Notes: a model not told the origin generated them from the sequence alone. 64,000 nt of DNA from Escherichia coli (GCF_050920415.1 NZ_CP169309.1); one strand, 5' to 3'. Positions 4,941-33,636 are shown, numbered from the stretch's first letter. Program-made: numbers and translations.

Positions 4941-5582
4941 TTGTATCAGGATAAAATTCTTGTCCGCCAGCTCGGTCTTCAGCCTTACGAGCCAATCTCC
5001 CAGGCTATGCATGAATTCACCGATACCCGCGATGAAAGTACCCTTGATGAAATCTGGCTGGTCGAGCACTATCCGGTATTCACCCAAGGGCAGGCAGGAA
5101 AAGCGGAGCACATTTTAATGCCGGGCGATATTCCGGTGATCCAAAGCGATCGCGGTGGGCAGGTGACTTATCACGGGCCGGGGCAACAGGTGATGTATGT
5201 GTTGCTTAACCTGAAACGCCGTAAACTCGGTGTGCGTGAACTGGTGACCTTGCTCGAGCAAACAGTGGTGAATACCCTGGCTGAACTGGGTATAGAAGCA
5301 CATCCTCGGGCTGACGCGCCTGGTGTCTATGTCGGGGAAAAGAAAATTTGCTCACTGGGTTTACGTATTCGACGCGGTTGTTCATTCCACGGTCTGGCAT
5401 TAAACGTCAATATGGATCTTTCACCATTTTTACGTATTAATCCTTGTGGGTATGCCGGAATGGAAATGGCTAAAATATCACAATGGAGACCCGAAGCGAC
5501 GACTAATAATATTGCACCACGTTTACTGGAAAATATTTTAGCGCTACTAAACAATCCTGACTTCGAATATATTACCGCTTAA
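4941..5582 (+). CDS. lipB: Octanoyltransferase LipB (TTG start)
   Basis: 213-aa ORF starting at TTG 4941; sequence and synteny match LipB. Confidence 0.92.
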
Positions 5583-5841
5583 TTGCATACATCAATGGCC
5601 CAATTTACACTGGGTCATTACTCATAATACCTGCTAATGCTTTACATCTCCTTCGCGTTTGTATATTTTCTTTATCACTTGCAGAAATGCGATGCTACGC
5701 CTTGCTCCGTAACTCACCCCATTGATTAACTTATTGAAATAGTTGATTATGGTGAGCAAAAGCGTTCCGTTCCAATTAGACATAAGATTATTGTAATTTT
5801 TTTAAATATTATTTTTCCATGAATAAAATTGGAGTAAGTGC

Positions 5842-6795
5842 GTGGATAGTAATAATCAAATTGAAACCTGTTTAAGCAGAAAGTCGTCAGAAGGTAAACC
5901 ACAAATATTTACAACCTTACGAAATATTGATCTTAACCTTCTGACTATTTTTGAAGCTGTGTATGTGCATAAAGGGATCGTTAATGCAGCGAAAGTGCTT
6001 AATCTGACACCCTCAGCAATCAGTCAGTCTATTCAGAAACTGCGCGTTATATTCCCTGACCCATTGTTTATTCGCAAAGGCCAGGGCGTCACTCCTACTG
6101 CATTTGCAATGCATTTGCATGAGTATATCAGTCAGGGCCTTGAATCCATTCTCGGCGCGCTGGATATCGAAGGAACCTATGATAAGCAACGAACGATAAC
6201 TATCGCGACCACCCCCTCGGTCGGAGCCCTGGTCCTTCCAGTCATCTATCGGGCGATTAAAACTCATTATCCGCAGCTTTTACTGCGCAACCCCCCTATC
6301 AGCGACGCGGAAAGCCAACTCAGTCAGTTTCAAACCGATCTCATCATTGATAACATGTTCTGCACCAATCGTACGGTACAACATCATGTTCTGTTCACCG
6401 ACAATATGGTGTTAATTTGCCGCGAGGGAAATTCGCTACTCTCCTTAGAAGATGACAGAGAGACTATCGAAAACGCTGCACATGTACTCCTGTTACCGGA
6501 AGGGCAAAATTTCAGCGGTTTGCGGCAGAGAGTTCAAGAGATGTTTCCGGACCGACAAATCAGTTTTACCAGCTACAACATTCTCACAATCGCTGCACTG
6601 GTTGCCAACAGTGACATGTTAGCGATTATTCCCAGCCGTTTTTATAATCTGTTTAGCCGTTGCTGGCCGCTGGAAAAGCTGCCTTTTCCGTCCTTAAATG
6701 AGGAGCAAATTGATTTCTCTATCCACTACAACAAATTCAGCCTGCGCGATCCTATCCTGCATGGGGTTATAGATGTTATCCGTAATGCATTTTGA
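5842..6795 (+). CDS. ybeF: LysR-family transcriptional regulator YbeF
   Basis: 317-aa ORF (GTG start) with N-terminal LysR-type HTH; AT-rich coding sequence; synteny between lipB and lipA. Confidence 0.9.
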   Translation: MDSNNQIETCLSRKSSEGKPQIFTTLRNIDLNLLTIFEAVYVHKGIVNAAKVLNLTPSAISQSIQKLRVIFPDPLFIRKGQGVTPTAFAMHLHEYISQGLESILGALDIEGTYDKQRTITIATTPSVGALVLPVIYRAIKTHYPQLLLRNPPISDAESQLSQFQTDLIIDNMFCTNRTVQHHVLFTDNMVLICREGNSLLSLEDDRETIENAAHVLLLPEGQNFSGLRQRVQEMFPDRQISFTSYNILTIAALVANSDMLAIIPSRFYNLFSRCWPLEKLPFPSLNEEQIDFSIHYNKFSLRDPILHGVIDVIRNAF

Positions 6796-9932: not shown

Positions 9933-10106
9933 CAAAATTACCTTTACATGAAAAATAGACACAAATGCTGTGTCGGTTACCAGTACACCAATTGTGGTAC
10001 GCTTTGTCCAGTGCAACTTTACTAAAAAGTGATAAAAGTCGCGTTATTTTTGATGTTAATTATTTTACTCATTGATTTTAAAGAAGTTACTAAAATTTCA
10101 TTTGTC

Positions 10107-10667
10107 TCAAAACTGAAAGCGCATCCAGGCAAAGTACACATTGCCATTGTTATAGGTACCCGGAATGTAGGTCATCTGAAAAGTCACTGGACCATAACCC
10201 ACAGAGGCCAATGGCAGTAGAACCGGGAGAGGGATGTAATTCCAGTTATCGCGTGCCGTTACGCCAGCGGTGAATCCCAGTCCTAAATGAAAATTTTCAT
10301 CCGCCAGCGGTCGCCAGGTACTTTCCCATCCGTATCCGGCAATCGGTTCCCATTTGTTCCACGAGTCCTTAAATGCCATGGCATACAGGCCATGCCAGTT
10401 TCCTTTTTCATCCCAACGCGACTGACCAAAACCGCCACCCCACGGTCGCTCGTTATAGCGATCGGTTTTTTCTTTGTCGTAAGCGAAACGAGCATGCCAG
10501 GTGATGGCAGGAATATATAAATCATAATGTTCAGGCTGTTGCCAGGTTTGTGTAATATTTTCTCCAAACGTTGTCATCCACTCATCTGCGTTAGCTAAAA
10601 CTTTACCAACGCTGATTAACTGAATAAAAACAAAGGAAAATATAGAGACATATTTACTCACGTTCAT
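10107..10667 (-). CDS. pagP: Lipid A palmitoyltransferase PagP (outer-membrane beta-barrel)
   Basis: 186-aa ORF starting MNVSKYV.. with signal peptide; sequence matches PagP. Confidence 0.93.
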
Positions 10668-11255
10668 TTGTGACCATAAAACATTTATCAAAAATCTACT
10701 ATTAGCATAGCAAAACTACAATTAACATAACCTTAATAGACCCAACATGAAGAATAATCTGAATAGCTGTTCTATTTATTTCCGCTTGTTCAAGATAAAT
10801 ATTTCCGCGCATCTATTAAAGATGATGCGTCGTTTTCTGCGATGGGAATAGTCATAAAAGAAAAACCAAGTCTTTTTTGATGACAAAATACAATCAAGAA
10901 AAAATTACTTTATTTTTTAATAAGATACAAAAAACTTCTTAACGAAGAATATATTATATATCGTCAACCTATGCTCATGGTAGATTATTTTTTGAGCGCA
11001 CGCCCGCGGCTAACACCATTGCAATTAACAAATTTGCATCAATCCACCATCAATTTACACACATTATTATGTGATAATTGCCAACCGCTAAATATGCGTT
11101 TTGTTATCTATGTATAAAAACAGCAACTTCAATGTCTTAATGGCAGTTTTTCTTGATTTTAATCAGCATTCACCGCCAATTTATTGGGCATATTTTTTCC
11201 TTAAGTTTTAGGAATTTTTTATTATTTACTTTGGGGCCTGGAGACAGGAAAAATT

Positions 11256-12641
11256 ATGCTGACATTCATTGAACTCCTTATTGGGGTTGTGGTTATTGTG
11301 GGTGTAGCTCGCTACATCATTAAAGGGTATTCCGCCACTGGCGTGTTATTTGTCGGTGGCCTGTTATTGCTGATTATTAGTGCCATTATGGGGCACAAAG
11401 TGTTACCGTCCAGCCAGGCTTCAACAGGCTACAGCGCCACGGATATCGTTGAATACGTTAAAATATTGCTAATGAGCCGCGGCGGCGACCTCGGCATGAT
11501 GATTATGATGCTGTGTGGCTTTGCCGCTTACATGACCCATATCGGCGCGAATGATATGGTGGTCAAGCTGGCGTCAAAACCATTGCAGTATATTAACTCC
11601 CCTTACCTGTTGATGATTGCCGCCTATTTTGTCGCCTGTCTGATGTCTCTGGCCGTCTCTTCCGCAACCGGTCTGGGTGTTTTGCTGATGGCAACCCTGT
11701 TTCCGGTGATGGTGAACGTTGGTATCAGCCGTGGTGCAGCTGCTGCTATTTGTGCCTCCCCGGCGGCGATTATTCTCGCACCGACTTCAGGGGATGTGGT
11801 GCTGGCGGCGCAGGCTTCCGAAATGTCGCTGATTGATTTCGCCTTCAAAACGACGCTGCCTATCTCAATTGCTGCAATTATCGGCATGGCGATCGCCCAC
11901 TTCTTCTGGCAACGTTATCTGGATAAAAAAGAGCACATCTCTCATGAAATGTTAGATGTCAGCGAAATCACCACCACTGCTCCTGCGTTTTATGCCATTT
12001 TGCCGTTCACGCCGATCATCGGAGTGCTGATTTTTGACGGCAAATGGGGGCCGCAATTACACATCATCACTATTCTGGTGATTTGTATGCTGATTGCCTC
12101 CATTCTGGAGTTCATCCGCAGCTTTAATACCCAGAAAGTGTTCTCGGGCCTGGAAGTGGCTTATCGCGGGATGGCAGATGCGTTTGCTAACGTGGTGATG
12201 CTGCTGGTTGCCGCTGGGGTATTCGCTCAGGGGCTTAGCACCATCGGCTTTATTCAAAGTCTGATTTCTATCGCCACTTCGTTTGGTTCGGCGAGTATCA
12301 TCCTGATGCTGGTATTGGTGATCCTGACAATGCTGGCGGCAGTCACGACCGGTTCAGGCAATGCGCCGTTTTATGCGTTTGTTGAGATGATCCCGAAACT
12401 GGCGCACTCTTCCGGCATTAACCCGGCGTATTTGACTATCCCAATGCTGCAGGCGTCAAACCTCGGTCGTACCCTGTCACCCGTTTCTGGCGTAGTCGTT
12501 GCGGTTGCCGGGATGGCGAAAATCTCACCATTTGAAGTCGTAAAACGCACCTCGGTGCCGGTGCTTGTTGGGCTGGTGATTGTTATCGTTGCTACAGAGC
12601 TGATGGTGCCAGGAACGGCAGCCGCGGTCACAGGCAAGTAA
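11256..12641 (+). CDS. dcuC: Anaerobic C4-dicarboxylate transporter DcuC
   Basis: 461-aa polytopic membrane ORF; sequence and synteny next to dpiA. Confidence 0.93.
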   Translation: MLTFIELLIGVVVIVGVARYIIKGYSATGVLFVGGLLLLIISAIMGHKVLPSSQASTGYSATDIVEYVKILLMSRGGDLGMMIMMLCGFAAYMTHIGANDMVVKLASKPLQYINSPYLLMIAAYFVACLMSLAVSSATGLGVLLMATLFPVMVNVGISRGAAAAICASPAAIILAPTSGDVVLAAQASEMSLIDFAFKTTLPISIAAIIGMAIAHFFWQRYLDKKEHISHEMLDVSEITTTAPAFYAILPFTPIIGVLIFDGKWGPQLHIITILVICMLIASILEFIRSFNTQKVFSGLEVAYRGMADAFANVVMLLVAAGVFAQGLSTIGFIQSLISIATSFGSASIILMLVLVILTMLAAVTTGSGNAPFYAFVEMIPKLAHSSGINPAYLTIPMLQASNLGRTLSPVSGVVVAVAGMAKISPFEVVKRTSVPVLVGLVIVIVATELMVPGTAAAVTGK

Positions 12642-13362: not shown

Positions 13363-14989
13363 TAGGTTTCACTTTCGGAATATAGATTGAAAATAAGGTA
13401 CCGCAGGGATCATTATCTTCGAGAGTGATAACACCACCGCAGCGCGTTACGTAGCTGGCAATCAAGTACAACCCAATGCCATGTTCGCCGGGCTCGTCAG
13501 CACGCGTACTGACACCCTGCTCAAATATTTTGTCTCGTAGAGACTCTGGAACGCCGCAGCCCTGATCGGCGACTTCAATCACCACATCATCGCCTTCATC
13601 GCTGAGGAATAATTCAACGATCTTGTTTCCTTCATCGCTACGCAGGCTGGCTTCGAAGGCGTTATCAAGTAAATTGCCAACAATGGCTGCAAACTCGGTG
13701 CTGTCCAGTCCTGGCGGCAGTTGCGAAAGCTGACTTCCGGGGACGATGACCATTTTTAGCCCCAGTTCGCGGGCGCGCTGCACTTTACCAAAAAGCAGCC
13801 CCGCCACCTGGCGATCGGCAAACGCCTCGCGCAGGCTATCAATGAGCTGTTGCTGGGCCTGAGACTCCCCCTGCACCATCGCCAACACGCGATCATACTC
13901 TTTCATCTGCAACAGACCATTGAGCGTCGACATCCAATTGAGATGCTCGTGTCGCAATGTGCGCAGGCTCTCGACGTATTGTTTAATTTGCGTCAGTTGT
14001 GCATTGAGGGTGGATATTTCGTCTTTACTACGAAAGCTGATAATGGCCCCCAGCAAATCATCACCAGAACGAATAGCTTCCCGGTTGGCAATAACGCTCA
14101 GACCGTTAAAGTTCGCCACCACATCCTGACGTTTTTCATCAATCTGTTCGGTAAAGAAATCGGCGGGCCTGACCACTTCAGCAATGGGTTTACCCAACCA
14201 TTGCCGTCCGGGGGAACTCAGCCCCAGCATCTTTCTTGCGTTACGATTGATGGCGGTAATGTAACCGTGCGGATCCACCGCAATCAGCCCTTCATAAACC
14301 GAACTAAACAGCGCCTCTTGCTGACGGACCACGCGTGCGATTTGCTTTGGCTCCATGCCCATCATTTGCCGACGGATATGCGCGGCCAGGAACCACGACA
14401 GCAACATCAGAATCCCTAACAGCACGACAAACACGCCAGCCATCGGTAATAAAAACTCAGCCCGCCAGCTATCGATTTTACTCACCAGGTAGCCAATCGA
14501 CACCACGCCGATGACTTTTCCATCGTCATCAAAGATTGGCGTTTTGGCACGCATCGCCATGCCAATTGACCCTTTCCCGGTGATAAAGTAGCTCTCCCCT
14601 TTCTCCAGCGCGCCCGGTTTGGTGAATTGCATAGGATAACCAATTTTCTCCGGATTAGGATGGTAAAGACGAATCGAGTGCCGGTCACCAATCACGACAT
14701 AATCGAAATCAGTATCTCTTTGTAATTTGTTAGCGATGGTCGCCAGCCTCTTGTAGTCACGCGTTTTCACTGCGCTGATGATACTGTCATTAGAAGCAAT
14801 AATTTTTGCCTGATTCATTGCCATGTCGCGCACATGAAGCGTTAAATAGTCCTCAAAACTGGCCGTAAAATATTGCGCCAGGGCTGCAATGACAAATATT
14901 GAGAACACCAGAATCAGCAAAAAGATACGCAGCGGAAATGCCAGTCTTTGGAAAAATGCAAACTGTTTATTCTCGTTAAGCTGCAACAT
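13331..14989 (-). CDS. dpiB: Sensor histidine kinase DpiB (CitA), citrate sensor
   Basis: 552-aa ORF with two TM segments, periplasmic PAS-like domain and HATPase_c C-terminus; start trimmed to MLQLNENK. Confidence 0.92.
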   Translation of the reverse strand: MLQLNENKQFAFFQRLAFPLRIFLLILVFSIFVIAALAQYFTASFEDYLTLHVRDMAMNQAKIIASNDSIISAVKTRDYKRLATIANKLQRDTDFDYVVIGDRHSIRLYHPNPEKIGYPMQFTKPGALEKGESYFITGKGSIGMAMRAKTPIFDDDGKVIGVVSIGYLVSKIDSWRAEFLLPMAGVFVVLLGILMLLSWFLAAHIRRQMMGMEPKQIARVVRQQEALFSSVYEGLIAVDPHGYITAINRNARKMLGLSSPGRQWLGKPIAEVVRPADFFTEQIDEKRQDVVANFNGLSVIANREAIRSGDDLLGAIISFRSKDEISTLNAQLTQIKQYVESLRTLRHEHLNWMSTLNGLLQMKEYDRVLAMVQGESQAQQQLIDSLREAFADRQVAGLLFGKVQRARELGLKMVIVPGSQLSQLPPGLDSTEFAAIVGNLLDNAFEASLRSDEGNKIVELFLSDEGDDVVIEVADQGCGVPESLRDKIFEQGVSTRADEPGEHGIGLYLIASYVTRCGGVITLEDNDPCGTLFSIYIPKVKPNDSSINPIDR

Positions 14990-15368
14990 TGTTTTCCTTG
15001 CGGGTTGTCCCGAGCCTTTTTGACGGATGTAATTAAAATGTTGAATCAAAATACATAGATATTAAATATAATCGTGGCAAATTTTATTCATTAAATCAAT
15101 TAAATCACTTAAACCTGCGGGTCATTTCGTAATTACATTAATTAAAAAACTTAAAACCATTAAATAAATAAAAAACCACTAACTCTATGTGAAATAAATC
15201 AAAATTTCACGCTGCAATACTCCTTAGGATGTATAGCGAAAGGAGAAAAAGATATACCTCGATCGCCCCCCTTTCTCCCAAGTGAAAATAAAAGGTTATC
15301 AGTTTGCAACATCGAACAACATTCGTTGCAAATCGATAACAACATGCACCTTCAGGATACTATTTATT

Positions 15369-16427
15369 ATGTTCGGCAATGATATTTTCACCCGTGTAAA
15401 ACGTTCAGAAAATAAAAAAATGGCGGAAATCGTCCAATTCCTGCATGAAAATGATTTGAGCGTTGACACCACAGTCGAAGTATTTATTACCGTAACCCGC
15501 GATGAAAAGCTTATCGCGTGCGGTGGAATTGCCGGAAATATTATTAAATGCGTTGCTATCAGTGAATCCGTTCGCGGTGAAGGACTGGCGCTGACATTAG
15601 CCACTGAATTGATAAACCTCGCCTATGAGCGGCACAGCACGCATCTGTTTATTTATACCAAAACCGAATACGAGGCGCTGTTCCGCCAGTGCGGTTTTTC
15701 CACGCTGACCAGTGTACCCGGCGTGATGGTGCTGATGGAAAACAGCGCCACGCGACTGAAACGCTATGCCGAATCGCTGAAAAAATTTCGTCATCCAGGG
15801 AACAAGATTGGCTGCATTGTGATGAACGCCAATCCCTTTACGAATGGTCACCGTTATCTGATTCAACAGGCTGCAGCACAGTGCGACTGGTTGCATCTGT
15901 TTTTAGTTAAAGAAGATTCTTCACGCTTTCCCTATGAAGACCGGCTGGATCTGGTGTTAAAAGGCACCGCCGATATTCCACGCCTGACTGTGCATCGCGG
16001 CTCCGAATACATCATCTCCCGCGCTACGTTCCCTTGCTACTTCATTAAAGAACAGAGCGTCATTAACCATTGTTACACCGAAATTGATCTGAAGATTTTC
16101 CGTCAGTACCTCGCTCCCGCGCTGGGTGTAACTCACCGCTTTGTCGGTACTGAACCCTTTTGTCGCGTTACCGCCCAGTACAACCAGGATATGCGCTACT
16201 GGCTGGAAACGCCGACTATCTCCGCACCGCCCATCGAACTGGTTGAAATTGAGCGGCTGCGTTACCAGGAGATGCCGATATCCGCTTCCCGGGTACGTCA
16301 ACTGCTGGCGAAAAACGATCTCACGGCTATCGCGCCGCTGGTCCCTGCAGTCACGCTGCATTATTTGCAGAACCTGCTTGAGCACTCCCGCCAGGACGCG
16401 GCAGCTCGTCAAAAGACCCCCGCATGA
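15369..16427 (+). CDS. citC: [Citrate (pro-3S)-lyase] ligase CitC
   Basis: 352-aa ORF starting MFGNDIFTRV; first gene of the citCDEFXG operon. Confidence 0.92.
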   Translation: MFGNDIFTRVKRSENKKMAEIVQFLHENDLSVDTTVEVFITVTRDEKLIACGGIAGNIIKCVAISESVRGEGLALTLATELINLAYERHSTHLFIYTKTEYEALFRQCGFSTLTSVPGVMVLMENSATRLKRYAESLKKFRHPGNKIGCIVMNANPFTNGHRYLIQQAAAQCDWLHLFLVKEDSSRFPYEDRLDLVLKGTADIPRLTVHRGSEYIISRATFPCYFIKEQSVINHCYTEIDLKIFRQYLAPALGVTHRFVGTEPFCRVTAQYNQDMRYWLETPTISAPPIELVEIERLRYQEMPISASRVRQLLAKNDLTAIAPLVPAVTLHYLQNLLEHSRQDAAARQKTPA

Positions 16428-24573: not shown

Positions 24574-26139
24574 TTATGCTGTTTTGGTGCGAATCAGGTA
24601 GTCAAAAGCACTCAGAGAGGCTTTGGCACCTTCGCCAGTGGCGATGATGATCTGCTTGTACGGAACCGTCGTACAGTCACCCGCTGCGAACACGCCTTTG
24701 ACGTTGGTTTCGCATTTCGCATCAATGATAATCTCGCCCATGCGGTTACGTTCGACTGCGCCTTCGAGCCAGTTGGTGTTCGGCAGCAGACCAATCTGGA
24801 CAAAAATACCGGCCAGTTTGATGTTGTGAATATCGCCGCTGACACGATCGCGATATTCCAGACCAACAACTTTGCTGCCGTCGCCTTTCACTTCCGTGGT
24901 TTGCGCATTCAGAATAATGTCGACGTTTTTCAGGCTGCGCAGTTTGTCCTGCAGAACCTGGTCGGCTTTCATTTCTGGCGCAAATTCCAGCAGAGTTACG
25001 TGTTCAACGATACCCGCCAGGTCGATTGCCGCTTCCACGCCGGAGTTACCACCGCCGATAACCGCTACGCGTTTGCCTTTAAACAGCGGGCCGTCGCAGT
25101 GCGGGCAGTAGGTCACGCCTTTGGTACGATACTGATCTTCTCCCGGAACATTCATGTTGCGCCATTTTGCACCGGTCGCCACTATAATGCTGCGTGCTTT
25201 CAGTACCGCGCCAGAAGCTGTTTCAATCTGATGCAGGCCACCTTCAACCGCTGCCGGAATCAGTTTGCTGGCGCTCTGGCTGTCGATCACATCAACGTCG
25301 TATTCATCAACATGAACTTTCAGTGCACCTGCCAGTTTTTGGCCTTCGGTCTTCGGTACAGAAATGTAGTTTTCGATATCAACGGTATCGAGGATCTGAC
25401 CACCAAAACGTTCACCCATCAAACCGGTACGGATGCCTTTACGTGCGGAGTAAATTGCTGCCGCTGCACCCGCCGGGCCGGAACCAACGATTAATACGTC
25501 ATAAGCATCACGCTTGTTCAGCTCTTCTGCCGCACGTTTTTCCGCGCCAGTATCAATTTTGGCGACGATTTCGGAAATAGTCATGCGGCCCTGACCAAAC
25601 TCTTTCCCGTTTACGAACACTGCCGGAACGCCCATCACGTTGCGATCGGTGATTTCGTTCTGGAAGGTGCCGCCGTCAATTGCCGTATGCTTGATGCGCG
25701 GGTTCAGTACGCTCATCAGGTTCAGCGCCTGCACCACGTCCGGGCAGTTATGGCAAGAGAGCGAGTAATAGGTTTCGAATTCAAAATCACCGTCAATATG
25801 GCGAATCTGCTCCAGCAAAGACTGCGCTTCTTTTGACGGATGACCACCGGTCCACAACAACGCCAGTACCAGCGAGGTGAACTCGTGGCCCATCGGGGAA
25901 CCTGCAAAACGTGGCCCCTGGTTGGAACCTGGGTTAGTGATCAGGAAAGACGGCTTACGCACCGGCAAGCTGTTATCTTCTTTAAAGGTGACTTTGTCTG
26001 ACAGTTCTGCGATTTCAGCCAACAGTTCCTTGATTTCTGCCGATTTAGCGCTGTCATCCAGCGTGGCAATTAACTCAACAGGCTTGGTCAATTTCTCAAG
26101 GTAAGCCTTGAGTTGAGTTTTCATATTTGTGTCGAGCAT
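24574..26139 (-). CDS. ahpF: Alkyl hydroperoxide reductase subunit F (flavoprotein disulfide reductase)
   Basis: 521-aa ORF starting [11 protein letters not shown]; two CxxC redox motifs (CHNC, CPHCDG) and FAD/NAD Rossmann motifs. Confidence 0.95.
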
Positions 26140-26309
26140 GTTTATCTCCTGGGCTTTAAACATCATCATGCAAGCGGCCTCTGCGGCTACCTGGATGCAG
26201 CTTGCATCATGGTGCGGGGAAGAAAATCGGGTGCCGCAGCACCCGATTAATTAGGTGAATTTCCGAACTATTTCGCGCCGGAGTTGGTAGCGCGAAAGAC
26301 AAAGGAAAT

Positions 26310-26873
26310 TTAGATTTTACCAACCAGGTCCAGAGACGGAGCCAGAGTTGCTTCACCTTCTTTCCATTTAGCCGGGCAAACTTCACCTGGGTGAGAAGCT
26401 ACGTACTGTGCTGCTTTGATTTTACGCAGCAGGTCAGACGCGTCACGGCCAATGCCTTCAGCGGTAACTTCGATTGCCTGGATGATACCCTGCGGGTCAA
26501 CAACGAAGGTTGCACGGTCAGCCAGACCTTCATCTTCACGCATGTTGTCGAAGTTACGGGTCAGGGCGCCAGTCGGGTCGCCGATCATCGCATATTTGAT
26601 TTTAGCGATAGTTTCAGAGCTGCTGTGCCATGCTTTGTGGGTGAAGTGAGTATCGGTAGATACTGCGTATACATCTACGCCCAGTTTCTGCAGTTCTTCG
26701 TAGTGGTCAGCAACGTCACCCAGTTCGGTCGGGCATACGAAAGTAAAGTCAGCCGGGTAGAAGAAGAAGACGCTCCAGCGGCCTTCGGTATCTTTTTCGG
26801 TGATTTCGATGAATTCGCCGTTTTTGAATGCCTGGTTTTTAAAAGGTTTAATTTTGGTGTTAATCAAGGACAT
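26310..26873 (-). CDS. ahpC: Alkyl hydroperoxide reductase subunit C (2-Cys peroxiredoxin)
   Basis: 187-aa ORF with peroxidatic Cys motif FTFVCPTEL and resolving Cys (EVCP). Confidence 0.96.
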
Positions 26874-27245
26874 CTATACTTCCTCCGTGTTTTCGATGAG
26901 ATGTAAGGTAACCAATTTTTGCCGATTCGGCTAATGCGTTTCCATTATCAAATCGATAAGTTTTACCTTACAACCGTCGTAAGACAACTTTGTGAACTTT
27001 GCACCGCCAGTGGCGATAAAAAGTAAAATGGGCCCCCTTTCCAGGTGACCGTGTAATCTGAACTACCCTTTGGTATCTTCAGCGCCTGCCTGCAGGCTGT
27101 GGTGTTGCCCTTACAAATGCAACAACGACATGGATTACAACACCCTCATAAACAAAGGGCAATCACCTGATCTAAGCTCTTACCTATGACAGTGATAGGT
27201 TATGCCTTTTACTCCATTTTTGCACTGACTGAAAAGGACAAATTA

Positions 27246-27992
27246 ATGTTAAAAAAGATACTTTTACTGGCTCTGCTTCCTACAATCGCCTTTGCAGAGG
27301 AACTTCCTGCTCCGGTAAAAGCGATTGAAAAACAGGGCATTAAGATCATCAAAACGTTCGATGCCCCCGGCGGAATGAAAGGTTATCTCGGCAAGTATCA
27401 GGATATGGGCGTCACCATCTACCTGACTCCAGATGGTAAGCACGCTATCTCTGGTTACATGTACAACGAGAAAGGTGAAAACCTGAGTAACATGCTTATC
27501 GAAAAAGAAATTTATGCGCCAGCCGGACGCGAAATGTGGCAACGGATGGAACAATCGCACTGGCTCCTCGACGGTAAAAAAGACGCGCCAGTCATAGTCT
27601 ACGTTTTCGCCGATCCGTTCTGCCCATATTGTAAACAGTTCTGGCAGCAGGCGCGCCCGTGGGTTGATTCTGGCAAAGTACAGTTGAGAACATTGTTGGT
27701 TGGGGTTATCAAACCAGAAAGTCCGGCGACAGCCGCGGCAATTCTGGCCTCTAAAGATCCCGCAAAAACCTGGCAAGAATATGAAGCCTCTGGCGGCAAA
27801 CTTAAGCTAAATGTGCCTACAAACGTAAGTGCAGAGCAAATGAAAGTGTTAAGCGACAACGAGAAACTCATGGACGATCTGGGGGCAAATGTCACACCGG
27901 CTATCTATTACATGAGTAAGGAAAATACGCTGCAACAGGCCGTGGGGTTGCCCGATCAGAAAACGCTTAATATCATCATGAGAAATAAATAG
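27246..27992 (+). CDS. dsbG: Periplasmic thiol:disulfide interchange protein DsbG
   Basis: 248-aa ORF from [12 protein letters not shown] (signal peptide) with CPYC active site; divergent from ahpC. Confidence 0.93.
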
Positions 27993-28199
27993 AAGGTAAT
28001 TCATGGGTGGTTGAAATACATTCTTGCTTTTCAACCATTCTAAAAACGCATGAATTGCTTCTTCCCCTCCTGACAACTGTGTTACTTTAGAAAAACTTAA
28101 TCCAGAGTTAAGTAATAAAACATAACAAATATAAATAAAACAGTAGAATCATTGATTGCAAGAATGATTTATGGAAAAGATAATATAACGGAGTATGTT

Positions 28200-29102
28200 A
28201 TGGCTAATCTTTATGATTTAAAAAAATTCGACCTCAATTTACTGGTCATATTTGAGTGCATTTATCAACACCTCAGCATTAGCAAAGCAGCAGAATCATT
28301 ATATATAACGCCATCTGCCGTTAGTCAGTCGTTACAACGTTTACGCGTGCAATTTAATGACCCGTTATTCATCCGCTCAGGGAAAGGTATCGCGCCGACT
28401 ACAACAGGGTTAAATCTGCATCACCATCTTGAGAAAAATCTCCGAGGCCTTGAACAAACGATCAATATCGTTAATAAGTCTGAGCTGAAGAAAAATTTTA
28501 TTATCTACGGTCCTCAGCTTATTTCTTGTAGTAATAACAACATGCTAATCCGCTGTCTAAGACAAGATACTTCAATCGATATAGAATGCCATGACATACT
28601 GCTTTCAGCTGAAAACGCTGAAGAATTGTTAGTTCAACGCAAAGCTGACCTGGCAATTACACTGCAACCAGTAATTAGCCGCTCTGTCATCTGCATGCCG
28701 GTACATACTATTCGCAATTCTCTTATATGTAGCAACAAACATCCTCGTATTACCGATACCAGTAACTATGAACAAATTATCGCCGAAGAATTCACCTTGT
28801 TGATATCTAAATCAGCAGGGATTGACGAAATTCAAATGGACATAGATGAACGTTTTATGAACCGTAAAGTTTCATTTCGCAGTTCTTCTTTGTTGACGAT
28901 AATTAATAGTATTTCTGTTACTGACTTATTGGGCATTGTGCCCACCGAACTGTACGATTTACATCGTGATTTTTTGAAGTTACAAGAGATAAAACTGGAA
29001 CGACCACTTCCTACGGTTAAACTTTATATTTCCTATAACAAGGCTTCGTTGAACAACCTTGTCTTCTCACGATTCATAGATCGTTTAAATGATAGCTTCT
29101 GA
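28200..29102 (+). CDS. ybdO: LysR-family transcriptional regulator YbdO
   Basis: 300-aa AT-rich ORF starting MANLYDLKKFDLNLLVIFE with LysR HTH. Confidence 0.88.
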   Translation: MANLYDLKKFDLNLLVIFECIYQHLSISKAAESLYITPSAVSQSLQRLRVQFNDPLFIRSGKGIAPTTTGLNLHHHLEKNLRGLEQTINIVNKSELKKNFIIYGPQLISCSNNNMLIRCLRQDTSIDIECHDILLSAENAEELLVQRKADLAITLQPVISRSVICMPVHTIRNSLICSNKHPRITDTSNYEQIIAEEFTLLISKSAGIDEIQMDIDERFMNRKVSFRSSSLLTIINSISVTDLLGIVPTELYDLHRDFLKLQEIKLERPLPTVKLYISYNKASLNNLVFSRFIDRLNDSF

Positions 29103-29248
29103 TTTATTACCACGGATAAATGTTATATTACGCATCAATTGATTCATTGTGTGAATATAAAATAATGTGCTCTATCTTGCTTCGTTTACCCTATAATTAG
29201 CGGATTCATCTCACAAGTCACCCAGTAACGTTCAGAGAGCGTTTTCAG

Positions 29249-30469
29249 ATGTCTATTTATAAAATCCCTCTTCCGCTGAATATTTTAGAAGCTGCACAGG
29301 AACGTATTACCTGGACACTTAACACCTTGCCCCGTGTTTGCGTTTCTTTTTCGGGGGGTAAAGATTCCGGATTAATGCTGCATCTTACCGCCGAACTTGC
29401 CAGAAAATTGGGAAAAAAAATCTGCGTTTTGTTTATCGACTGGGAAGCACAGTTCTCTTGTACCATCGACTATGTACAGTCGTTACGCGAGTTGTATACC
29501 GACGTTATTGAAGAGTTTTACTGGGTAGCACTCCCACTCAAGACGCAAAATTCCCTTTCACAATACCAACCAGAATGGCAGTGCTGGGAATCTGATGTCG
29601 AATGGGTGCGTCAGCCCCCGCAAGAAGCGATAACCGATCCTGACTTTTTCTCCTTTTACCAGCCAGGCATGACCTTCGAACAATTTGTACGTGAGTTTGC
29701 CGAATGGTTTTCACAAAAACGTCCGGCGGCGATGATGATCGGCATCCGTGCGGATGAGTCCTACAACCGTTTTGTCGCCATCGCCAGTTTAAATAAACAA
29801 CGTTTTGCCGATGATAAGCCCTGGACCACAGCCGCACCAGGCGGTCACTGCTGGTACATTTACCCCATCTACGACTGGAAAGTAGCTGATATCTGGACCT
29901 GGTATGCTAATCATAAATCCCTATGTAACCCATTGTATAATATCATGTATCAGGCAGGCGTTCCCCTGCGTCATATGCGAATTTGCGAACCTTTTGGCCC
30001 GGAGCAACGGCAAGGATTATGGCTCTATCACGTTATCGAACCGGATCGCTGGGCTGCTATGTGCGCACGAGTTAGCGGGGTAAAAAGTGGCGGCATTTAC
30101 GCCGGACATGACAATCATTTTTATGGTCATCGGAAAATCCTCAAACCAGAGCATTTAGACTGGCAAGAGTATGCATTATTGCTGCTTGATAGCATGCCGG
30201 AGAAAACGGCTGAGCATTACCGCAACAAAATTGCCATTTACTTGCATTGGTATCAGAAAAAAGGTATCGAGGTGCCACAGACCCAGGACGGGGACATTGG
30301 CGCGAAAGATATCCCCTCCTGGCGGCGAATTTGCAAGGTGTTACTGAATAACGATTACTGGTGTCGGGCATTATCATTTAGCCCAACCAAAGCGAAGAAT
30401 TATCAGCGTTATAACGAACGGATAAAAGTAAAACGTCAGGAGTGGGGAATACTATGCAACAACAATTAA
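29249..30469 (+). CDS. ybdN: PAPS-reductase-like (ATP pyrophosphatase fold) protein YbdN, IbrA-like
   Basis: 406-aa ORF with SGGKDS P-loop-like motif near the N-terminus; AT-rich; synteny. Confidence 0.88.
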   Translation: MSIYKIPLPLNILEAAQERITWTLNTLPRVCVSFSGGKDSGLMLHLTAELARKLGKKICVLFIDWEAQFSCTIDYVQSLRELYTDVIEEFYWVALPLKTQNSLSQYQPEWQCWESDVEWVRQPPQEAITDPDFFSFYQPGMTFEQFVREFAEWFSQKRPAAMMIGIRADESYNRFVAIASLNKQRFADDKPWTTAAPGGHCWYIYPIYDWKVADIWTWYANHKSLCNPLYNIMYQAGVPLRHMRICEPFGPEQRQGLWLYHVIEPDRWAAMCARVSGVKSGGIYAGHDNHFYGHRKILKPEHLDWQEYALLLLDSMPEKTAEHYRNKIAIYLHWYQKKGIEVPQTQDGDIGAKDIPSWRRICKVLLNNDYWCRALSFSPTKAKNYQRYNERIKVKRQEWGILCNNN

Positions 30470-31071
30470 CGCAGGATTTAACCCAATTTCTCGCCAGCTT
30501 GCCGGAAGACGATCGCATCAAAGCGATTAACGAAATCCGCCTGGCGATCCATCAGGTTAGCCCCTTTCGTGAAGAGCCAGTAGATTGTGTTCTGTGGGTT
30601 AAAAACAGCCAACTTATGCCAAATGATTACAACCCAAACAATGTGGCACCGCCCGAGAAAAAACTGTTACAAAAATCCATTGAGATAGATGGTTTTACCC
30701 AACCTATTGTGGTCACGCACACAGATAAAAATGCTCTGGAAATCGTGGATGGCTTTCACCGTCATGAAATTGGTAAAGGCTCTAACACGTTAAAAATGCG
30801 ATTAAAAGGATATTTACCGGTCACCTGTCTGGAAGGAACACGTAACGAACGCATCGCCGCGACTATTCGTCATAACCGCGCTCGTGGACGCCACCAAATC
30901 ACAGCCATGTCAGAAATCGTTCGTGAACTCAGCCAGTTAGGATGGGACGACAATAAAATCGGCAAAGAGCTGGGTATGGACAGCGACGAAGTGTTGCGCC
31001 TGAAACAAATTAACGGCCTGCAAGAGTTATTTGCTGACCGTCAATATTCCCGCGCCTGGACAGTAAAATAA
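30442..31071 (+). CDS. ybdM: ParB/Srx-like nuclease-domain protein YbdM, IbrB-like
   Basis: 209-aa ORF overlapping ybdN by 28 nt; ParB-like motif region (IVDGFHR). Confidence 0.88.
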   Translation: MGNTMQQQLTQDLTQFLASLPEDDRIKAINEIRLAIHQVSPFREEPVDCVLWVKNSQLMPNDYNPNNVAPPEKKLLQKSIEIDGFTQPIVVTHTDKNALEIVDGFHRHEIGKGSNTLKMRLKGYLPVTCLEGTRNERIAATIRHNRARGRHQITAMSEIVRELSQLGWDDNKIGKELGMDSDEVLRLKQINGLQELFADRQYSRAWTVK

Positions 31072-32232
31072 TTACAGCTGGCGCAGGCGTTCAGCTGCCG
31101 CCAGCAACGTCGATTCCTTCTTGGCAAAACAGAGACGAATGAGCTTATGGGGGAAGGGATCGGCGCAAAATACCGACAGCGGGATCGCCGCCACGCCATG
31201 CTCCCGCGTCAGCCTCTGGCAAAACTCAACGTCATCCAGCGAAGAAACCGCGCTGTAATCCACCAGCAAAAAGTAAGTGCCTTCGCACGGTAAAATCTCC
31301 AGCCGACTCTCACTTAAGGCATTCACCAGAATATCGCGCTTCTGGCGATAAAAGTCCGGTAACGCAAGGTAGTGTTCAGGTTCTGCTCGCAGCATATCGG
31401 CAAGGGCCAGCTGCGCCGGGGTATTCACCGAAAAAGTCAGATACTGATGCACTTTGCGGATCTCGGCGCTGATGGGCGCAGGCGCAACGCAATAGCCCAC
31501 TTTCCAGCCGGTCATATGATAGGTCTTGCCAAACGATGACACCGCCACCGCCCGCTCACGCAGTTGCGGATGCGCCAGCACACTGGCATGGTCCTGCTGT
31601 GAAAAGTTGATATGCTCGTAAACTTCATCGCTAATGACAAAAATCTCGTGCCCGGCAATTGCCTGCCACAAAGCGGAAAAATCAGTCTGCTGCCAGACAG
31701 TAGCACTGGGGTTATGCGGGGTGTTAAGGATCACCAGTCGGGTGCGCTCGCTTAACAATGCGGCAAATTCCTGCCAGTCCACGCGAAAATGCGGTGGTTG
31801 CAGTGCAATACGTTTCACTATTCCACCCGCAAGCGTGATGGCGGGGGCGTAACTGTCATAGCTGGGATCAAAGCAAATCACTTCATCGCCATTGCGCACC
31901 AATGCAGTAATCGCTGCGTACAGCGCTTCCGTCGCCCCTGCTGTTACGGTGATATCGCTGTCGGCATCTGGTTGATAGCCATACAGCCGTTCCGTTTTCT
32001 GAGCAATCGCCTCGCGCAAGGCCTGCACGCCAGTCATAGGCGCGTATTGGTTTGCTCCCTGGGCAACGTGGTACGCCAGCCGTTCCTGCAAATAGCGCGG
32101 ACCATCAAAATCAGGAAAGCCTTGTGACAGGTTAATCGCCTGGTGTTGCTGCGCCAGTGCGCTCATCTGGGTGAAAATAGTGGTGCCAAGTTGTGGAAGT
32201 TTGCTTTGTGGAATCAGAGGGTTATTTGTCAT
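31072..32232 (-). CDS. ybdL: PLP-dependent aminotransferase YbdL (methionine aminotransferase)
   Basis: 386-aa ORF from MTNNPLIPQSK with class-I aminotransferase lysine motif (SSFGKTY). Confidence 0.92.
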   Translation of the reverse strand: MTNNPLIPQSKLPQLGTTIFTQMSALAQQHQAINLSQGFPDFDGPRYLQERLAYHVAQGANQYAPMTGVQALREAIAQKTERLYGYQPDADSDITVTAGATEALYAAITALVRNGDEVICFDPSYDSYAPAITLAGGIVKRIALQPPHFRVDWQEFAALLSERTRLVILNTPHNPSATVWQQTDFSALWQAIAGHEIFVISDEVYEHINFSQQDHASVLAHPQLRERAVAVSSFGKTYHMTGWKVGYCVAPAPISAEIRKVHQYLTFSVNTPAQLALADMLRAEPEHYLALPDFYRQKRDILVNALSESRLEILPCEGTYFLLVDYSAVSSLDDVEFCQRLTREHGVAAIPLSVFCADPFPHKLIRLCFAKKESTLLAAAERLRQL

Positions 32233-32340
32233 TTTTATTGTGCCTGACAAAGTTGCGTGTTGAAGCCACTATAACACGATGCTAGTATTTGGCAATCAAG
32301 ACGTTTAGATGTCTAAATAAAACAATAAGGACAACACAAC

Positions 32341-33429
32341 ATGCCTCACAATCCTATCCGCGTCGTCGTTGGCCCTGCTAACTACTTTTCTCATCCCGGC
32401 AGTCTCAATCACCTGCATGATTTTTTCACTGATGAACAACTTTCTCGCGCAGTGTGGATCTACGGTGAACGTGCACTTGCCGCGGCGCAAACCAAACTTC
32501 CATCGGCGTTTGAACTGCCAAGAGCAAAGCATATTTTGTTTCGCGGTCATTGCAGTGAAAGCAATGTGCAACAACTGGCGGCTGAGTCCGGTGACGATCG
32601 CAGCATGGTGATTGGCGTCGGTGGCGGCGCACTGCTCGACACCGCGAAAGCCCTCGCCCGCCGTCTCGGTCTGCCGTTTGTTGCCGTTCCAACGATTGCC
32701 GCTACCTGCGCTGCCTGGACACCACTCTCTGTCTGGTACAACGATGCCGGACAGGCGCTACATTATGAGATTTTTGACGACGCCAATTTTATGGTGCTGG
32801 TGGAACCGGAGATTATCCTCAATGCGCCGCAAGAATATCTGCTGGCGGGAATCGGTGACACGCTGGCGAAATGGTATGAAGCGGTGGTGCTGGCCCCACA
32901 ACCAGAAACGTTGCCACTAACCGTGCGGCTGGGAATCAATAATGCGCAGGTCATTCGCGACGTCTTGTTAAACAGTAGCGAACAGGCGCTTGCCGATCAG
33001 CAAAATCAGCAGTTAACGCAATCATTTTGCGATGTGGTCGATGCGATTATCGCCGGAGGCGGAATGGTCGGTGGTCTGGGCGATCGTTTTACGCGTGTGG
33101 CGGCGGCCCATGCCGTGCATAACGGTCTGACTGTACTGCCACAAACCGAGAAGTTTCTCCACGGCACCAAAGTCGCCTACGGAATTCTGGTGCAAAGCGC
33201 CTTGCTGGGTCAGGATGATGTGCTGGCGCAATTAACCGGGGCGTATCAGCGTTTTCATCTGCCGACTACGCTGGCGGAGCTGGAAGTGGATATCAATAAT
33301 CAGGTGGAGATTGACAAAATGATTGCCCACACCCTACGTCCGGTGGAATCCATTCATTATCTGCCAGTCACGCTGACACCAGATACTTTGCGTGCTGCGT
33401 TCGAAAAAGTGGAATCGTTTAAAGCCTGA
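32341..33429 (+). CDS. ybdH: Iron-containing alcohol dehydrogenase family protein YbdH (hydroxycarboxylate dehydrogenase HcxA)
   Basis: 362-aa ORF; GGGxxxD nucleotide-binding motif; synteny. Confidence 0.9.
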   Translation: MPHNPIRVVVGPANYFSHPGSLNHLHDFFTDEQLSRAVWIYGERALAAAQTKLPSAFELPRAKHILFRGHCSESNVQQLAAESGDDRSMVIGVGGGALLDTAKALARRLGLPFVAVPTIAATCAAWTPLSVWYNDAGQALHYEIFDDANFMVLVEPEIILNAPQEYLLAGIGDTLAKWYEAVVLAPQPETLPLTVRLGINNAQVIRDVLLNSSEQALADQQNQQLTQSFCDVVDAIIAGGGMVGGLGDRFTRVAAAHAVHNGLTVLPQTEKFLHGTKVAYGILVQSALLGQDDVLAQLTGAYQRFHLPTTLAELEVDINNQVEIDKMIAHTLRPVESIHYLPVTLTPDTLRAAFEKVESFKA

Positions 33430-33438
33430 CGTACAAAT

Positions 33439-33636
33439 TTAGCAGCAGCGCGCGCCGCCTTTTCCACCGTAGCGCGCGTCCTGCCGCTCACGGAAAAACT
33501 CCTCGTAGGTCATCGGCGTTTGATCGGGATGGTTAACCCGCATATGTTCGACATAGTTGTCGTAATCAGGCATACCAATCATCAGCTTCGCCGCCTGACC
33601 TAAATATTTTCCGGCTTTTGCCAGTGAATCAAACAT
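33439..33636 (-). CDS. ybdD: DUF466 small protein YbdD (CstA-associated)
   Basis: 65-aa [20 protein letters not shown].. downstream of cstA. Confidence 0.88.

Follow-up and report, generated by a model that had tools for sequence, protein, structure and literature searches.

The window analyzed here, a stretch of 64,000 nucleotides from Escherichia coli (GCF_050920415.1, NZ_CP169309.1) with positions counted from its first letter, carries on its plus strand three consecutive genes, ybdO, ybdN and ybdM, the last two of which (together ybdNM) are the main subject of this work. Gene ybdO, or citR (28200-29102, with an open reading frame starting at 28152 or 28200), encodes a LysR-type repressor of ybdNM of 300 amino acids. 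Gene ybdN (29249-30469) encodes a protein of 406 amino acids, composed of a PP-loop domain with the fold of 3'-phosphoadenylylsulfate (PAPS) reductases (residues ~30-234) and a helical DUF3440 domain (residues 237-383), and ybdM (30442-31071), annotated with a GTG start, a protein of 209 amino acids. The identical three genes, with identical lengths, are annotated by RefSeq in other E. coli. Gene positions and domain calls made from the sequence in a first-pass annotation agreed with the open reading frames and with Pfam and NCBIfam searches, and its proposal that YbdN and YbdM are paralogues of IbrA and IbrB was borne out by full-length amino acid identities of 57-58% and 55-60%, respectively, to accessory E. 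coli IbrA/IbrB-like pairs. Besides this similarity, the locus has the PAPS_reduct plus DUF3440 protein and the same-strand neighbor with ParB and helix-turn-helix (HTH) domains and the motifs DGFHR and RHNRARG that characterize the family. Within the IbrA/IbrB family, otherwise found mainly on phages, plasmids and islands, ybdN-ybdM represents the enterobacterial member that resides on the chromosome and is inherited vertically.

Pfam searches detected in YbdN the domains PAPS_reduct (PF01507, E-value 9e-14) and DUF3440 (PF11922, 4e-23), and the protein matched PHROG 2302 over its full length; PHROGs holds full-length families for both YbdN and YbdM. By profile and fold, the nearest characterized relatives of YbdN were adenylyltransferases, namely CysD and flavin adenine dinucleotide (FAD) synthase, and a single-protein sequence search of the PDB returned nothing close. 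Its PP-loop, SGGKDS (residues 35-40, codons at 29351..29368), is a motif binding the alpha and beta phosphates of ATP. In the family alignment G37, K38 and S40 were invariant and S35, G36 and D39 at least 90% conserved; of 160 homologues, 146 contained SGGK[DN][ST] and 159 the relaxed pattern S.GK[DN][ST]. A further motif, GIRADESYNR (residues 165-174, codons at 29741..29770), represents the G-x-R-x-D-E-S..R signature of the PAPS-reductase/CysD clade, with conserved columns at G165, R167, E170, S171 and R174 and the pattern G.R..ES in 157 of the 160. Because the PP-loop is intact and near-universal and the GxRxDES..R motif is conserved, YbdN is predicted to act as an adenylyltransferase. Comparison of longer family members with NCBIfam and PHROGs uncovered no informative fused domain except phrog_26647, a second small protein that is fused to IbrA in P0124.

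Cysteines of YbdN were counted in 160 closer full-length homologues. Residue C372, within the DUF3440 motif NDxxC[K/R]xxGF, is cysteine in 152 of them and C362 in 114; expressed as percentages, positions 94, 246, 362 and 364 are cysteine in 79, 50, 71 and 52% of the sequences. At least three of five semi-conserved positions are occupied by cysteine in 140 homologues, and 156 have C94 or C246 in a complementary pattern (Fisher p 4.5e-7, uncorrected for phylogeny). YbdN itself carries C246 (codon at 29984..29986), C362 and C372 (in RICKVLLNNDYWC, codons at 30332..30364), the last two being candidate metal or iron-sulfur (Fe-S) ligands or catalytic cysteines. Judged from the alignment, this constellation may form a site for a metal or Fe-S center that is plastic in its ligands, or supply a catalytic cysteine, and because of it sulfur transfer in the manner of DndC or TtuA is possible for YbdN.

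The partner protein, YbdM, contains Pfam domain ParB_N and combines a ParB/sulfiredoxin (Srx) fold with an HTH resembling those of KorB and Spo0J. Conservation of this family is unusually high, with a mean column identity of 40% and identities of 44-51% between the E. coli protein and those of Bacteroidota, Firmicutes and an archaeal metagenome-assembled genome (MAG). Three motifs, NxYNPN, DGFHR and RHNRARGxH, are invariant. The first, NDYNPNNVAPPE (residues 61-72, codons at 30622..30657), stands in place of ParB Box I (xxQPR) and includes the invariant residues N61, N64, P65, N66 and E72. The second, DGFHR (residues 103-107, codons at 30748..30762), is an Srx/DndB-type version of ParB Box II (GERR); D103, G104 and R107 are invariant and DG[FYVWL][HC]R was found in 132 of 165 cluster members. 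The third, TIRHNRARGRH (residues 141-151, codons at 30862..30894), is the signature of the YbdM/IbrB family, with R143, N145, R146, G149 and H151 invariant. Owing to its ParB-N/Srx fold, its HTH and its high conservation, YbdM is the predicted DNA-binding member of the pair. Alignment to Noc placed N64 and N66 at the positions of the Q and R of ParB, and G104-F105-H106-R107 at GERR; since the residues for binding and hydrolysis of cytidine triphosphate (CTP) are replaced, a ParB-like CTPase/sliding-clamp mechanism is not to be assumed. Weaker matches of YbdM included ParB-domain DNA methyltransferase families (phrog_498, and the ParB domain of PADLOC MTase_II, the sole PADLOC hit of YbdM, with an E-value of 0.0024). 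YbdM was called "completely uncharacterized" in 2022, in a study in which a CTX-M-15 plasmid increased the protein 29-fold and overexpressing it lowered the growth rate by 10% (PMC8764527). Knockout of ybdM gave a hit in a screen for peptide resistance (PMC12147183). In line with the first-pass annotation, the searchable literature yielded neither a functional study of the two proteins nor a paper assigning them a biochemical function.

Linkage of the two genes was assessed in 159 loci encoding an IbrA homologue of full length, drawn from 80 genomic loci, 80 viral loci and four phage records. In 146 of them an IbrB signature was present on the strand of IbrA and no more than 2.5 kb away, and 7 of the 13 unlinked loci have less than 2.5 kb of flanking sequence on one side. 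A recurrent third gene, found in 38 loci, encodes an SNF2-like ATPase of ~420 amino acids (Pfam SNF2-rel_dom, phrog_62). A small GNAT-fold protein lies beside the pair in 27 loci (22 plus 5), and in a Ralstonia locus a gene of this type is placed between the two genes of the pair; for the 135-amino-acid partner of Bacteroidota there was no direct Pfam match, and its link to GNAT came solely from an HHalign match with a related cluster (98.4%; Pfam GNAT E-value 1.3e-4). Viral copies were situated amid genes for helicases, primase, a Sak4-like annealase and Cas4/RecE-like exonucleases, and others adjoin terminase genes. In ~30 viral loci a domain of ~140 amino acids with the motif W..SCEH.L.N...NR.AW[IL]GQA follows phage IbrB or is fused to it (for example at L108 3384-3809, and in L118_1 at residues ~222-392); it had no Pfam match. 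Recurring cysteine desulfurase, DndD/DndE, PglZ or nuclease partners were not found in the 160 homologous loci.

An accessory paralogous pair is present in 2094 of 5426 E. coli genomes (39%). In the nin region of a lambdoid prophage it forms an opposite-strand moron, in an O157 island it adjoins a PerC-family regulator near the cah autotransporter, and an ST131 islet carries it next to a TonB-dependent receptor. In PLSDB, a protein search with YbdN retrieved 729 plasmids, 323 of them from Klebsiella, and the one Klebsiella IncFIB plasmid examined has fecIA on one side of the pair and iroBCDN on the other. In Ralstonia it follows a hemagglutinin gene. Accessory pairs were located at L167 12001-13870, L168 8978-10833, L169 8941-10793, L170 8989-10850 and L172 5977-8257. 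The proximity of these pairs to acquired surface, virulence and iron genes hints at local gene activation. As for function, IbrB is described, with reference to Sandt 2002, as an activator of Eib expression (PMC7649339), and viromics papers class the phage homologues as sulfur-metabolism genes.

The first-pass annotation had taken the composition of the module as typical of horizontally acquired DNA. The distribution of the locus speaks against this origin: among 5426 complete E. coli genomes 5420 contained the citR-ybdNM region, Citrobacter, Enterobacter, Kluyvera, Phytobacter and Pseudocitrobacter repeat the gene order ahpF-ahpC-dsbG-ybdO-ybdN-ybdM-ybdL-hcxA-cstA, and the non-synonymous/synonymous substitution ratio (dN/dS) was 0.04-0.07 for ybdN and 0.05-0.10 for ybdM, with dS saturated between genera. 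ybdNM are under strong purifying selection, and are old, vertically inherited, functional genes rather than a recent island.

YbdO is assigned to CitR by the NCBIfam equivalog model NF047710, with a score of 454.8 bits against a cut-off of 400. The H-NS and LysR control suggested from the sequence is documented: citR is stated to be regulated by H-NS, a CitR peak in chromatin immunoprecipitation with exonuclease digestion (ChIP-exo) lies upstream of citR-ybdNM, and deletion of citR raised ybdN by 5.5 log2 (~45-fold) and ybdM by 2.5 log2 (PMC9068703). In total 86 genes were altered in the deletion, including flagellar, cys and cit genes; cysDNC, cysJI and cysAUW rose 4- to 7-fold and flagellar genes strongly, and the ChIP-exo peaks outside the citR-ybdNM upstream region matched no differentially expressed gene (PMC9068703). 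These expression changes may lie downstream of derepressed YbdNM, or be strain artefacts. Flagellar changes are a known class of artefact in Keio-type mutants. The flagellar pattern of a ybeF mutant was like that of the citR mutant (PMC9068703).

The AT-richness ascribed to the whole module proved to be confined to part of it. The GC content of ybdO is 37.9% (37.1% at third codon positions), against a window mean of 51.1% with a standard deviation (SD) of 4.9 in 1-kb intervals, and the dsbG-ybdO intergenic region (27993..28199, 29.9% GC) and the ybdO-ybdN spacer (29103..29248, 34.9% GC), both on the plus strand, are with ybdO among the lowest values of the window. By contrast, ybdN (46.5%) and ybdM (46.0%) are only ~1 SD below the mean. 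Other AT-rich stretches of the window, at ~10000-11500, 14500-15500 and 5250-6000, have a GC content equal to or below that of ybdO, with 1-kb values down to 35.7% near 10500. The dsbG-ybdO region contains the citR promoter and the reported CitR-binding region, and is hypervariable among E. coli lineages. Within the ybdO-ybdN spacer a promoter-like site, TTGATT-16-AATAAT (29139-29166, plus strand), matches the consensus no better than expected by chance for the region, and a promoter and terminator scan of 27900-31400 gave counts no higher than in shuffled sequence. An Rfam search of 26000-33500 matched no family, and parS-like inverted repeats, sought in 27950-29300, were not found.

The overlap of 28 nucleotides between ybdN and ybdM (30442..30469) noted in the first-pass annotation holds with the annotated GTG start at 30442, and shortens to 16 nucleotides if translation begins at an in-frame ATG at 30454; the genes overlap with either start. 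An AGGAG sequence at 30437-30441 directly abuts the GTG with zero spacing, whereas the ATG lies 12 nucleotides 3' of it and is better placed, so that the real YbdM may be a protein of 205 amino acids with the 16-nucleotide overlap. Downstream, and outside the module, lies the convergent gene ybdL (31072..32232, minus strand), encoding a methionine-oxo-acid transaminase. The stop codons of ybdM (31071) and ybdL (31072) adjoin with a 0-nucleotide spacer, and the scan of 27900-31400 identified no terminator-like site between the genes. Because the stops abut and no such site separates them, the ybdM and ybdL transcripts must overlap, and antisense interference between them is possible; ybdM is mentioned in a paper on "excludons".

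Among E. coli genomes, identity to the 3-kb region had a bimodal distribution, with 1846 genomes at 90-95% and 3554 at 80-90%. Diversifying selection on the enzymes was considered as the source of this pattern and rejected; the pattern is due to two alleles of ybdO and its spacers. The two deep ybdO alleles share 79.6% nucleotide identity, with a dS of ~2.1 and a dN/dS of 0.03, and between allele classes the dsbG-ybdO spacer is 75.6% and the ybdO-ybdN spacer 69.9% identical, compared with 96-97.5% for dsbG, ybdL and ybdM (97.5% for ybdM). The window carries the minority, Seattle-1946-like ybdO allele. Diversification driven by H-NS is the topic of a 2016 PLoS Genetics paper (PMC4720273) that names ybdO 112 times and is probably concerned with this allele divergence. 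The flanks are also distinct, the ahpCF-dsbG side (24574-27992) being ~97% and the ybdL-hcxA side (31072-33429) ~93% identical to nearly all of the 5426 E. coli genomes; for the three queries, the two flanks and the 3-kb region, just 2, 3 and 14 genomes reached at least 99% identity. The source genome belongs to a divergent Escherichia lineage.

The folds, motifs and gene linkage described above, the DNA-related gene context, the known ParB-fold partners of DNA-modifying enzymes and the selection and regulation of the genes led us to favor, tentatively, a reading in which ybdNM encode a ParB-guided, ATP-dependent pair that modifies or processes DNA and is kept silent by CitR. What the analysis shows are the folds, motifs, gene linkage, distribution, selection and repression; a DNA substrate, a recruiting role for YbdM and any chemistry beyond ATP binding we infer. 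YbdM would bind DNA through its ParB/Srx-fold nucleotide-binding domain and its HTH, and recruit or activate YbdN; YbdN would spend ATP on adenylating a nucleic acid group and so activating it for substitution or other processing, and C246, C362 and C372 may hold a metal or Fe-S center or take part in catalysis. The altered state of the DNA would shift the expression of genes that lie nearby or are silenced, an outcome of the kind reported for IbrAB. Phage pairs would mark or process the replicating genome, whereas in E. coli CitR, whose own gene is reported to be regulated by H-NS, keeps the pair off. A more specific version, in which the pair, guided by ParB and using ATP for activation, puts a hitherto undescribed covalent mark on DNA that serves in bacteria as an epigenetic switch relieving foreign genes of silencing and in phages as a label of replicating genomes, appears doubtful; the mark would be a base or backbone adduct formed through an adenylated intermediate, perhaps with a cysteine- or Fe-S-dependent step. 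Several observations weigh against a DNA-modifying or -processing role. The searchable literature demonstrates no modification, substrate or activity for any member of the family, and no sulfur-mobilizing, nicking or DndD/DndE-type partner was linked to it in the 160 loci. YbdM lacks the canonical ParB CTPase residues, Q, R and E being replaced by N64, N66 and F105, and distant actinophage-type homologues are devoid of the cysteines discussed above (43-sequence alignment). Finally, accessory copies beside adhesin, siderophore, PerC-type and hemagglutinin genes would fit pure regulation equally well.

Such pure regulation, the role first ascribed to IbrAB, would involve YbdM as a ParB-like anti-silencer or activator, comparable to VirB and KorB, and YbdN as its nucleotide-dependent cofactor or sensor, without covalent change of the DNA. 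We regard this as rather unlikely. The enhancement of Eib expression by IbrB reported with reference to Sandt 2002 (PMC7649339), the KorB/Spo0J-like HTH of YbdM and the horizontally acquired genes next to accessory copies (PerC/cah, the TonB-dependent receptor, iroBCDN/fecIA, hemagglutinin) all agree with it, and the 86 changes in the citR deletion that have no matching CitR peaks could lie downstream of YbdNM (PMC9068703). The resemblance of the flagellar changes to those of the ybeF mutant, and to known Keio-type artefacts, reduces the force of the last point. Moreover, a near-invariant PP-loop and motifs of catalytic type, retained from archaeal MAGs to E. coli, would be superfluous in a regulator, as would SNF2 and GNAT partners or a place in the replication modules of lytic phages. 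Adenylation could instead be directed at RNA, with YbdN activating a base of tRNA or rRNA as TilS, TtcA, ThiI and MnmA do and YbdM serving as specificity or regulatory subunit. This is improbable given that the partner is a ParB-fold protein with an HTH, that the recurrent third gene encodes an SNF2 DNA translocase and the viral context is one of DNA replication and recombination, and that the module is silenced in E. coli, unlike constitutive housekeeping tRNA enzymes.

A role in defense, modification-based or abortive in bacteria and consisting of self-modification against restriction in phages, seems to us no less improbable, although the module had been described as defense-like in the first-pass annotation. 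The domain pairing does recall Dnd, Ssp and BREX type 4, the pair is carried by 729 plasmids and by a prophage as an opposite-strand moron, and preprints note PAPS reductases in Aca-regulated anti-defense operons and in NAP-linked candidate defenses. However, PADLOC yielded nothing beyond partial DndC and BrxP matches at E-values of ~1e-5 and no match to a DndB model, the survey of gene neighborhoods across 160 loci revealed no recurrent nuclease, restriction, effector or other defense partner and pointed instead to phage replication and virulence or iron contexts, and the core, syntenic and repressed ybdNM are unlike a variable defense island; no experimental phage phenotype has been reported. 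That YbdN is a true PAPS/APS (adenylylsulfate) reductase of sulfur assimilation, as database names and viral surveys assume, is very improbable. The Pfam PAPS_reduct match and the RefSeq product name suggest it, and loss of citR, which raises ybdN ~45-fold, is accompanied by higher expression of the cys regulon (PMC9068703). Nevertheless, its score against the NCBIfam model TIGR02057 was 34.7 bits for a cut-off of 254.2, over residues 13-88 only, the obligate partner is a ParB-HTH protein and E. coli already has cysH. The PP-loop is degenerate in CysH and intact (SGGKDS) in YbdN, which lacks the C-terminal ECGLH-type motif. Least credible of all is a sulfiredoxin-like repair of over-oxidized peroxiredoxin cysteines, an idea that arises from the presence of a CysD-like adenylyltransferase and an Srx-fold protein beside ahpCF and dsbG: the position of the Srx catalytic cysteine is occupied by Phe in YbdM (DGFHR), YbdM carries an HTH, and the linkage to ahpCF is restricted to one bacterial family in a pair that is mostly borne by phages and plasmids and associated with SNF2. 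Overall, the first-pass observations were largely right and their interpretation, partly supported, was reasonable as a lead; horizontal acquisition and a defense-like nature found no support.

Occurring in nearly all E. coli, many Enterobacteriaceae and many gut and environmental phages, the family is very widespread, and in phages it is routinely taken for an "auxiliary metabolic gene" of sulfur metabolism. Should YbdNM modify DNA, the best-studied bacterium would harbor, in silent form, a new modification chemistry assisted by ParB, and phage "cysH" counts in viromics would need re-interpretation; were a covalent mark involved, it would be a cryptic DNA-modification system in the E. coli K-12 core genome. 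If YbdNM only regulate, they would represent a new, enzyme-dependent class of ParB-type activator relevant to the expression of virulence islands. The locus is annotated and its regulation published; the family falls outside CysH, Dnd, BREX type 4 and canonical ParB.

Comparison with known systems places ybdNM closest to IbrA/IbrB, the immunoglobulin-binding regulator pair of E. coli ECOR-9, in which a PAPS_reduct plus DUF3440 gene is likewise followed by an overlapping ParB-HTH gene and the motifs SGGKDS, NDxWC, DGFHR and RHNRARG are common to both. The two differ in that ybdNM are core, syntenic and under an adjacent LysR repressor, whereas IbrAB-like pairs are accessory, on prophages, islands and plasmids; a phenotype has been reported for IbrAB only. 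Resemblance to the DndC/DndB type of domain pairing, also proposed in the first-pass annotation, was confirmed as regards folds, the Dnd, SspD and BrxP systems likewise joining a ParB/Srx-fold DGxHR protein to a PAPS-reductase-clade ATP pyrophosphatase with a PP-loop, and a likeness of the YbdN cysteines to the ligands of the Cys-bound [4Fe-4S] cluster of Dnd is possible. At the level of family models the comparison failed: YbdN scored 21.3 bits against DndC model TIGR03183 (cut-off 290.4), matched PADLOC DndC at an E-value of 2.4e-5 over residues 155-254 only and PADLOC BrxP with 19.8 bits over residues 29-102 only (E-value ~1e-5), and YbdM had no PADLOC DndB match at E-values up to 0.1. No component model of PADLOC-DB v2 was matched at family level, and YbdO had no match. 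The DndB motif is DGQHR, versus DGFHR in YbdM. Neighbors encoding DndA or IscS, DndD, DndE, SspB, SspC, PglZ, BrxC or BrxL did not recur in the 80 genomic and 80 viral loci of the YbdNM family, which instead has the DUF3440 C-terminal domain in YbdN and SNF2, GNAT and the 140-amino-acid domain as recurrent partners.

With respect to CysH, YbdN also scored low against PRK02090 (35 versus 154 bits, within residues 13-91), and its sole well-conserved cysteine, C372, lies in the NDYWC of DUF3440. The best matches of YbdN were CysD and the PAPS domain of eukaryotic FAD synthase, with which it shares the intact PP-loop and the adenylyl-transfer scaffold; its scores are nevertheless far under the family cut-offs, it has no CysN partner, and it possesses extra Trp-rich inserts (W110, W113, W119, R121) in addition to DUF3440. 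The ParB N-terminal fold and HTH of ParB CTPases (ParABS, Noc, KorB) are also found in YbdM, but Box I QPR, Box II GERR and a parA-like neighbor are missing, and unlike KorB, VirB and Noc, YbdM (209 amino acids) has no ParB-comparable C-terminal dimerization domain and has an obligate enzymatic partner. ParB-fold proteins are known as partners of DNA-modifying enzymes in DndB/DndC and DpdB/DpdA (PMC10853773, PMC12839542), the latter comprising a ParB-fold protein and an adjacent post-replicative DNA-modifying enzyme (PMC12839542), and experiments on the phage thymine dioxygenase 5mYOX176 have shown that the adjacent enzyme needs its ParB-fold partner, ParB176 (PMC13229309). The enzymes of these two pairs are a dioxygenase and a transglycosylase, as opposed to the PP-loop ATPase of YbdNM, and ParB176 has no DNA-binding domain, whereas YbdM carries an HTH.

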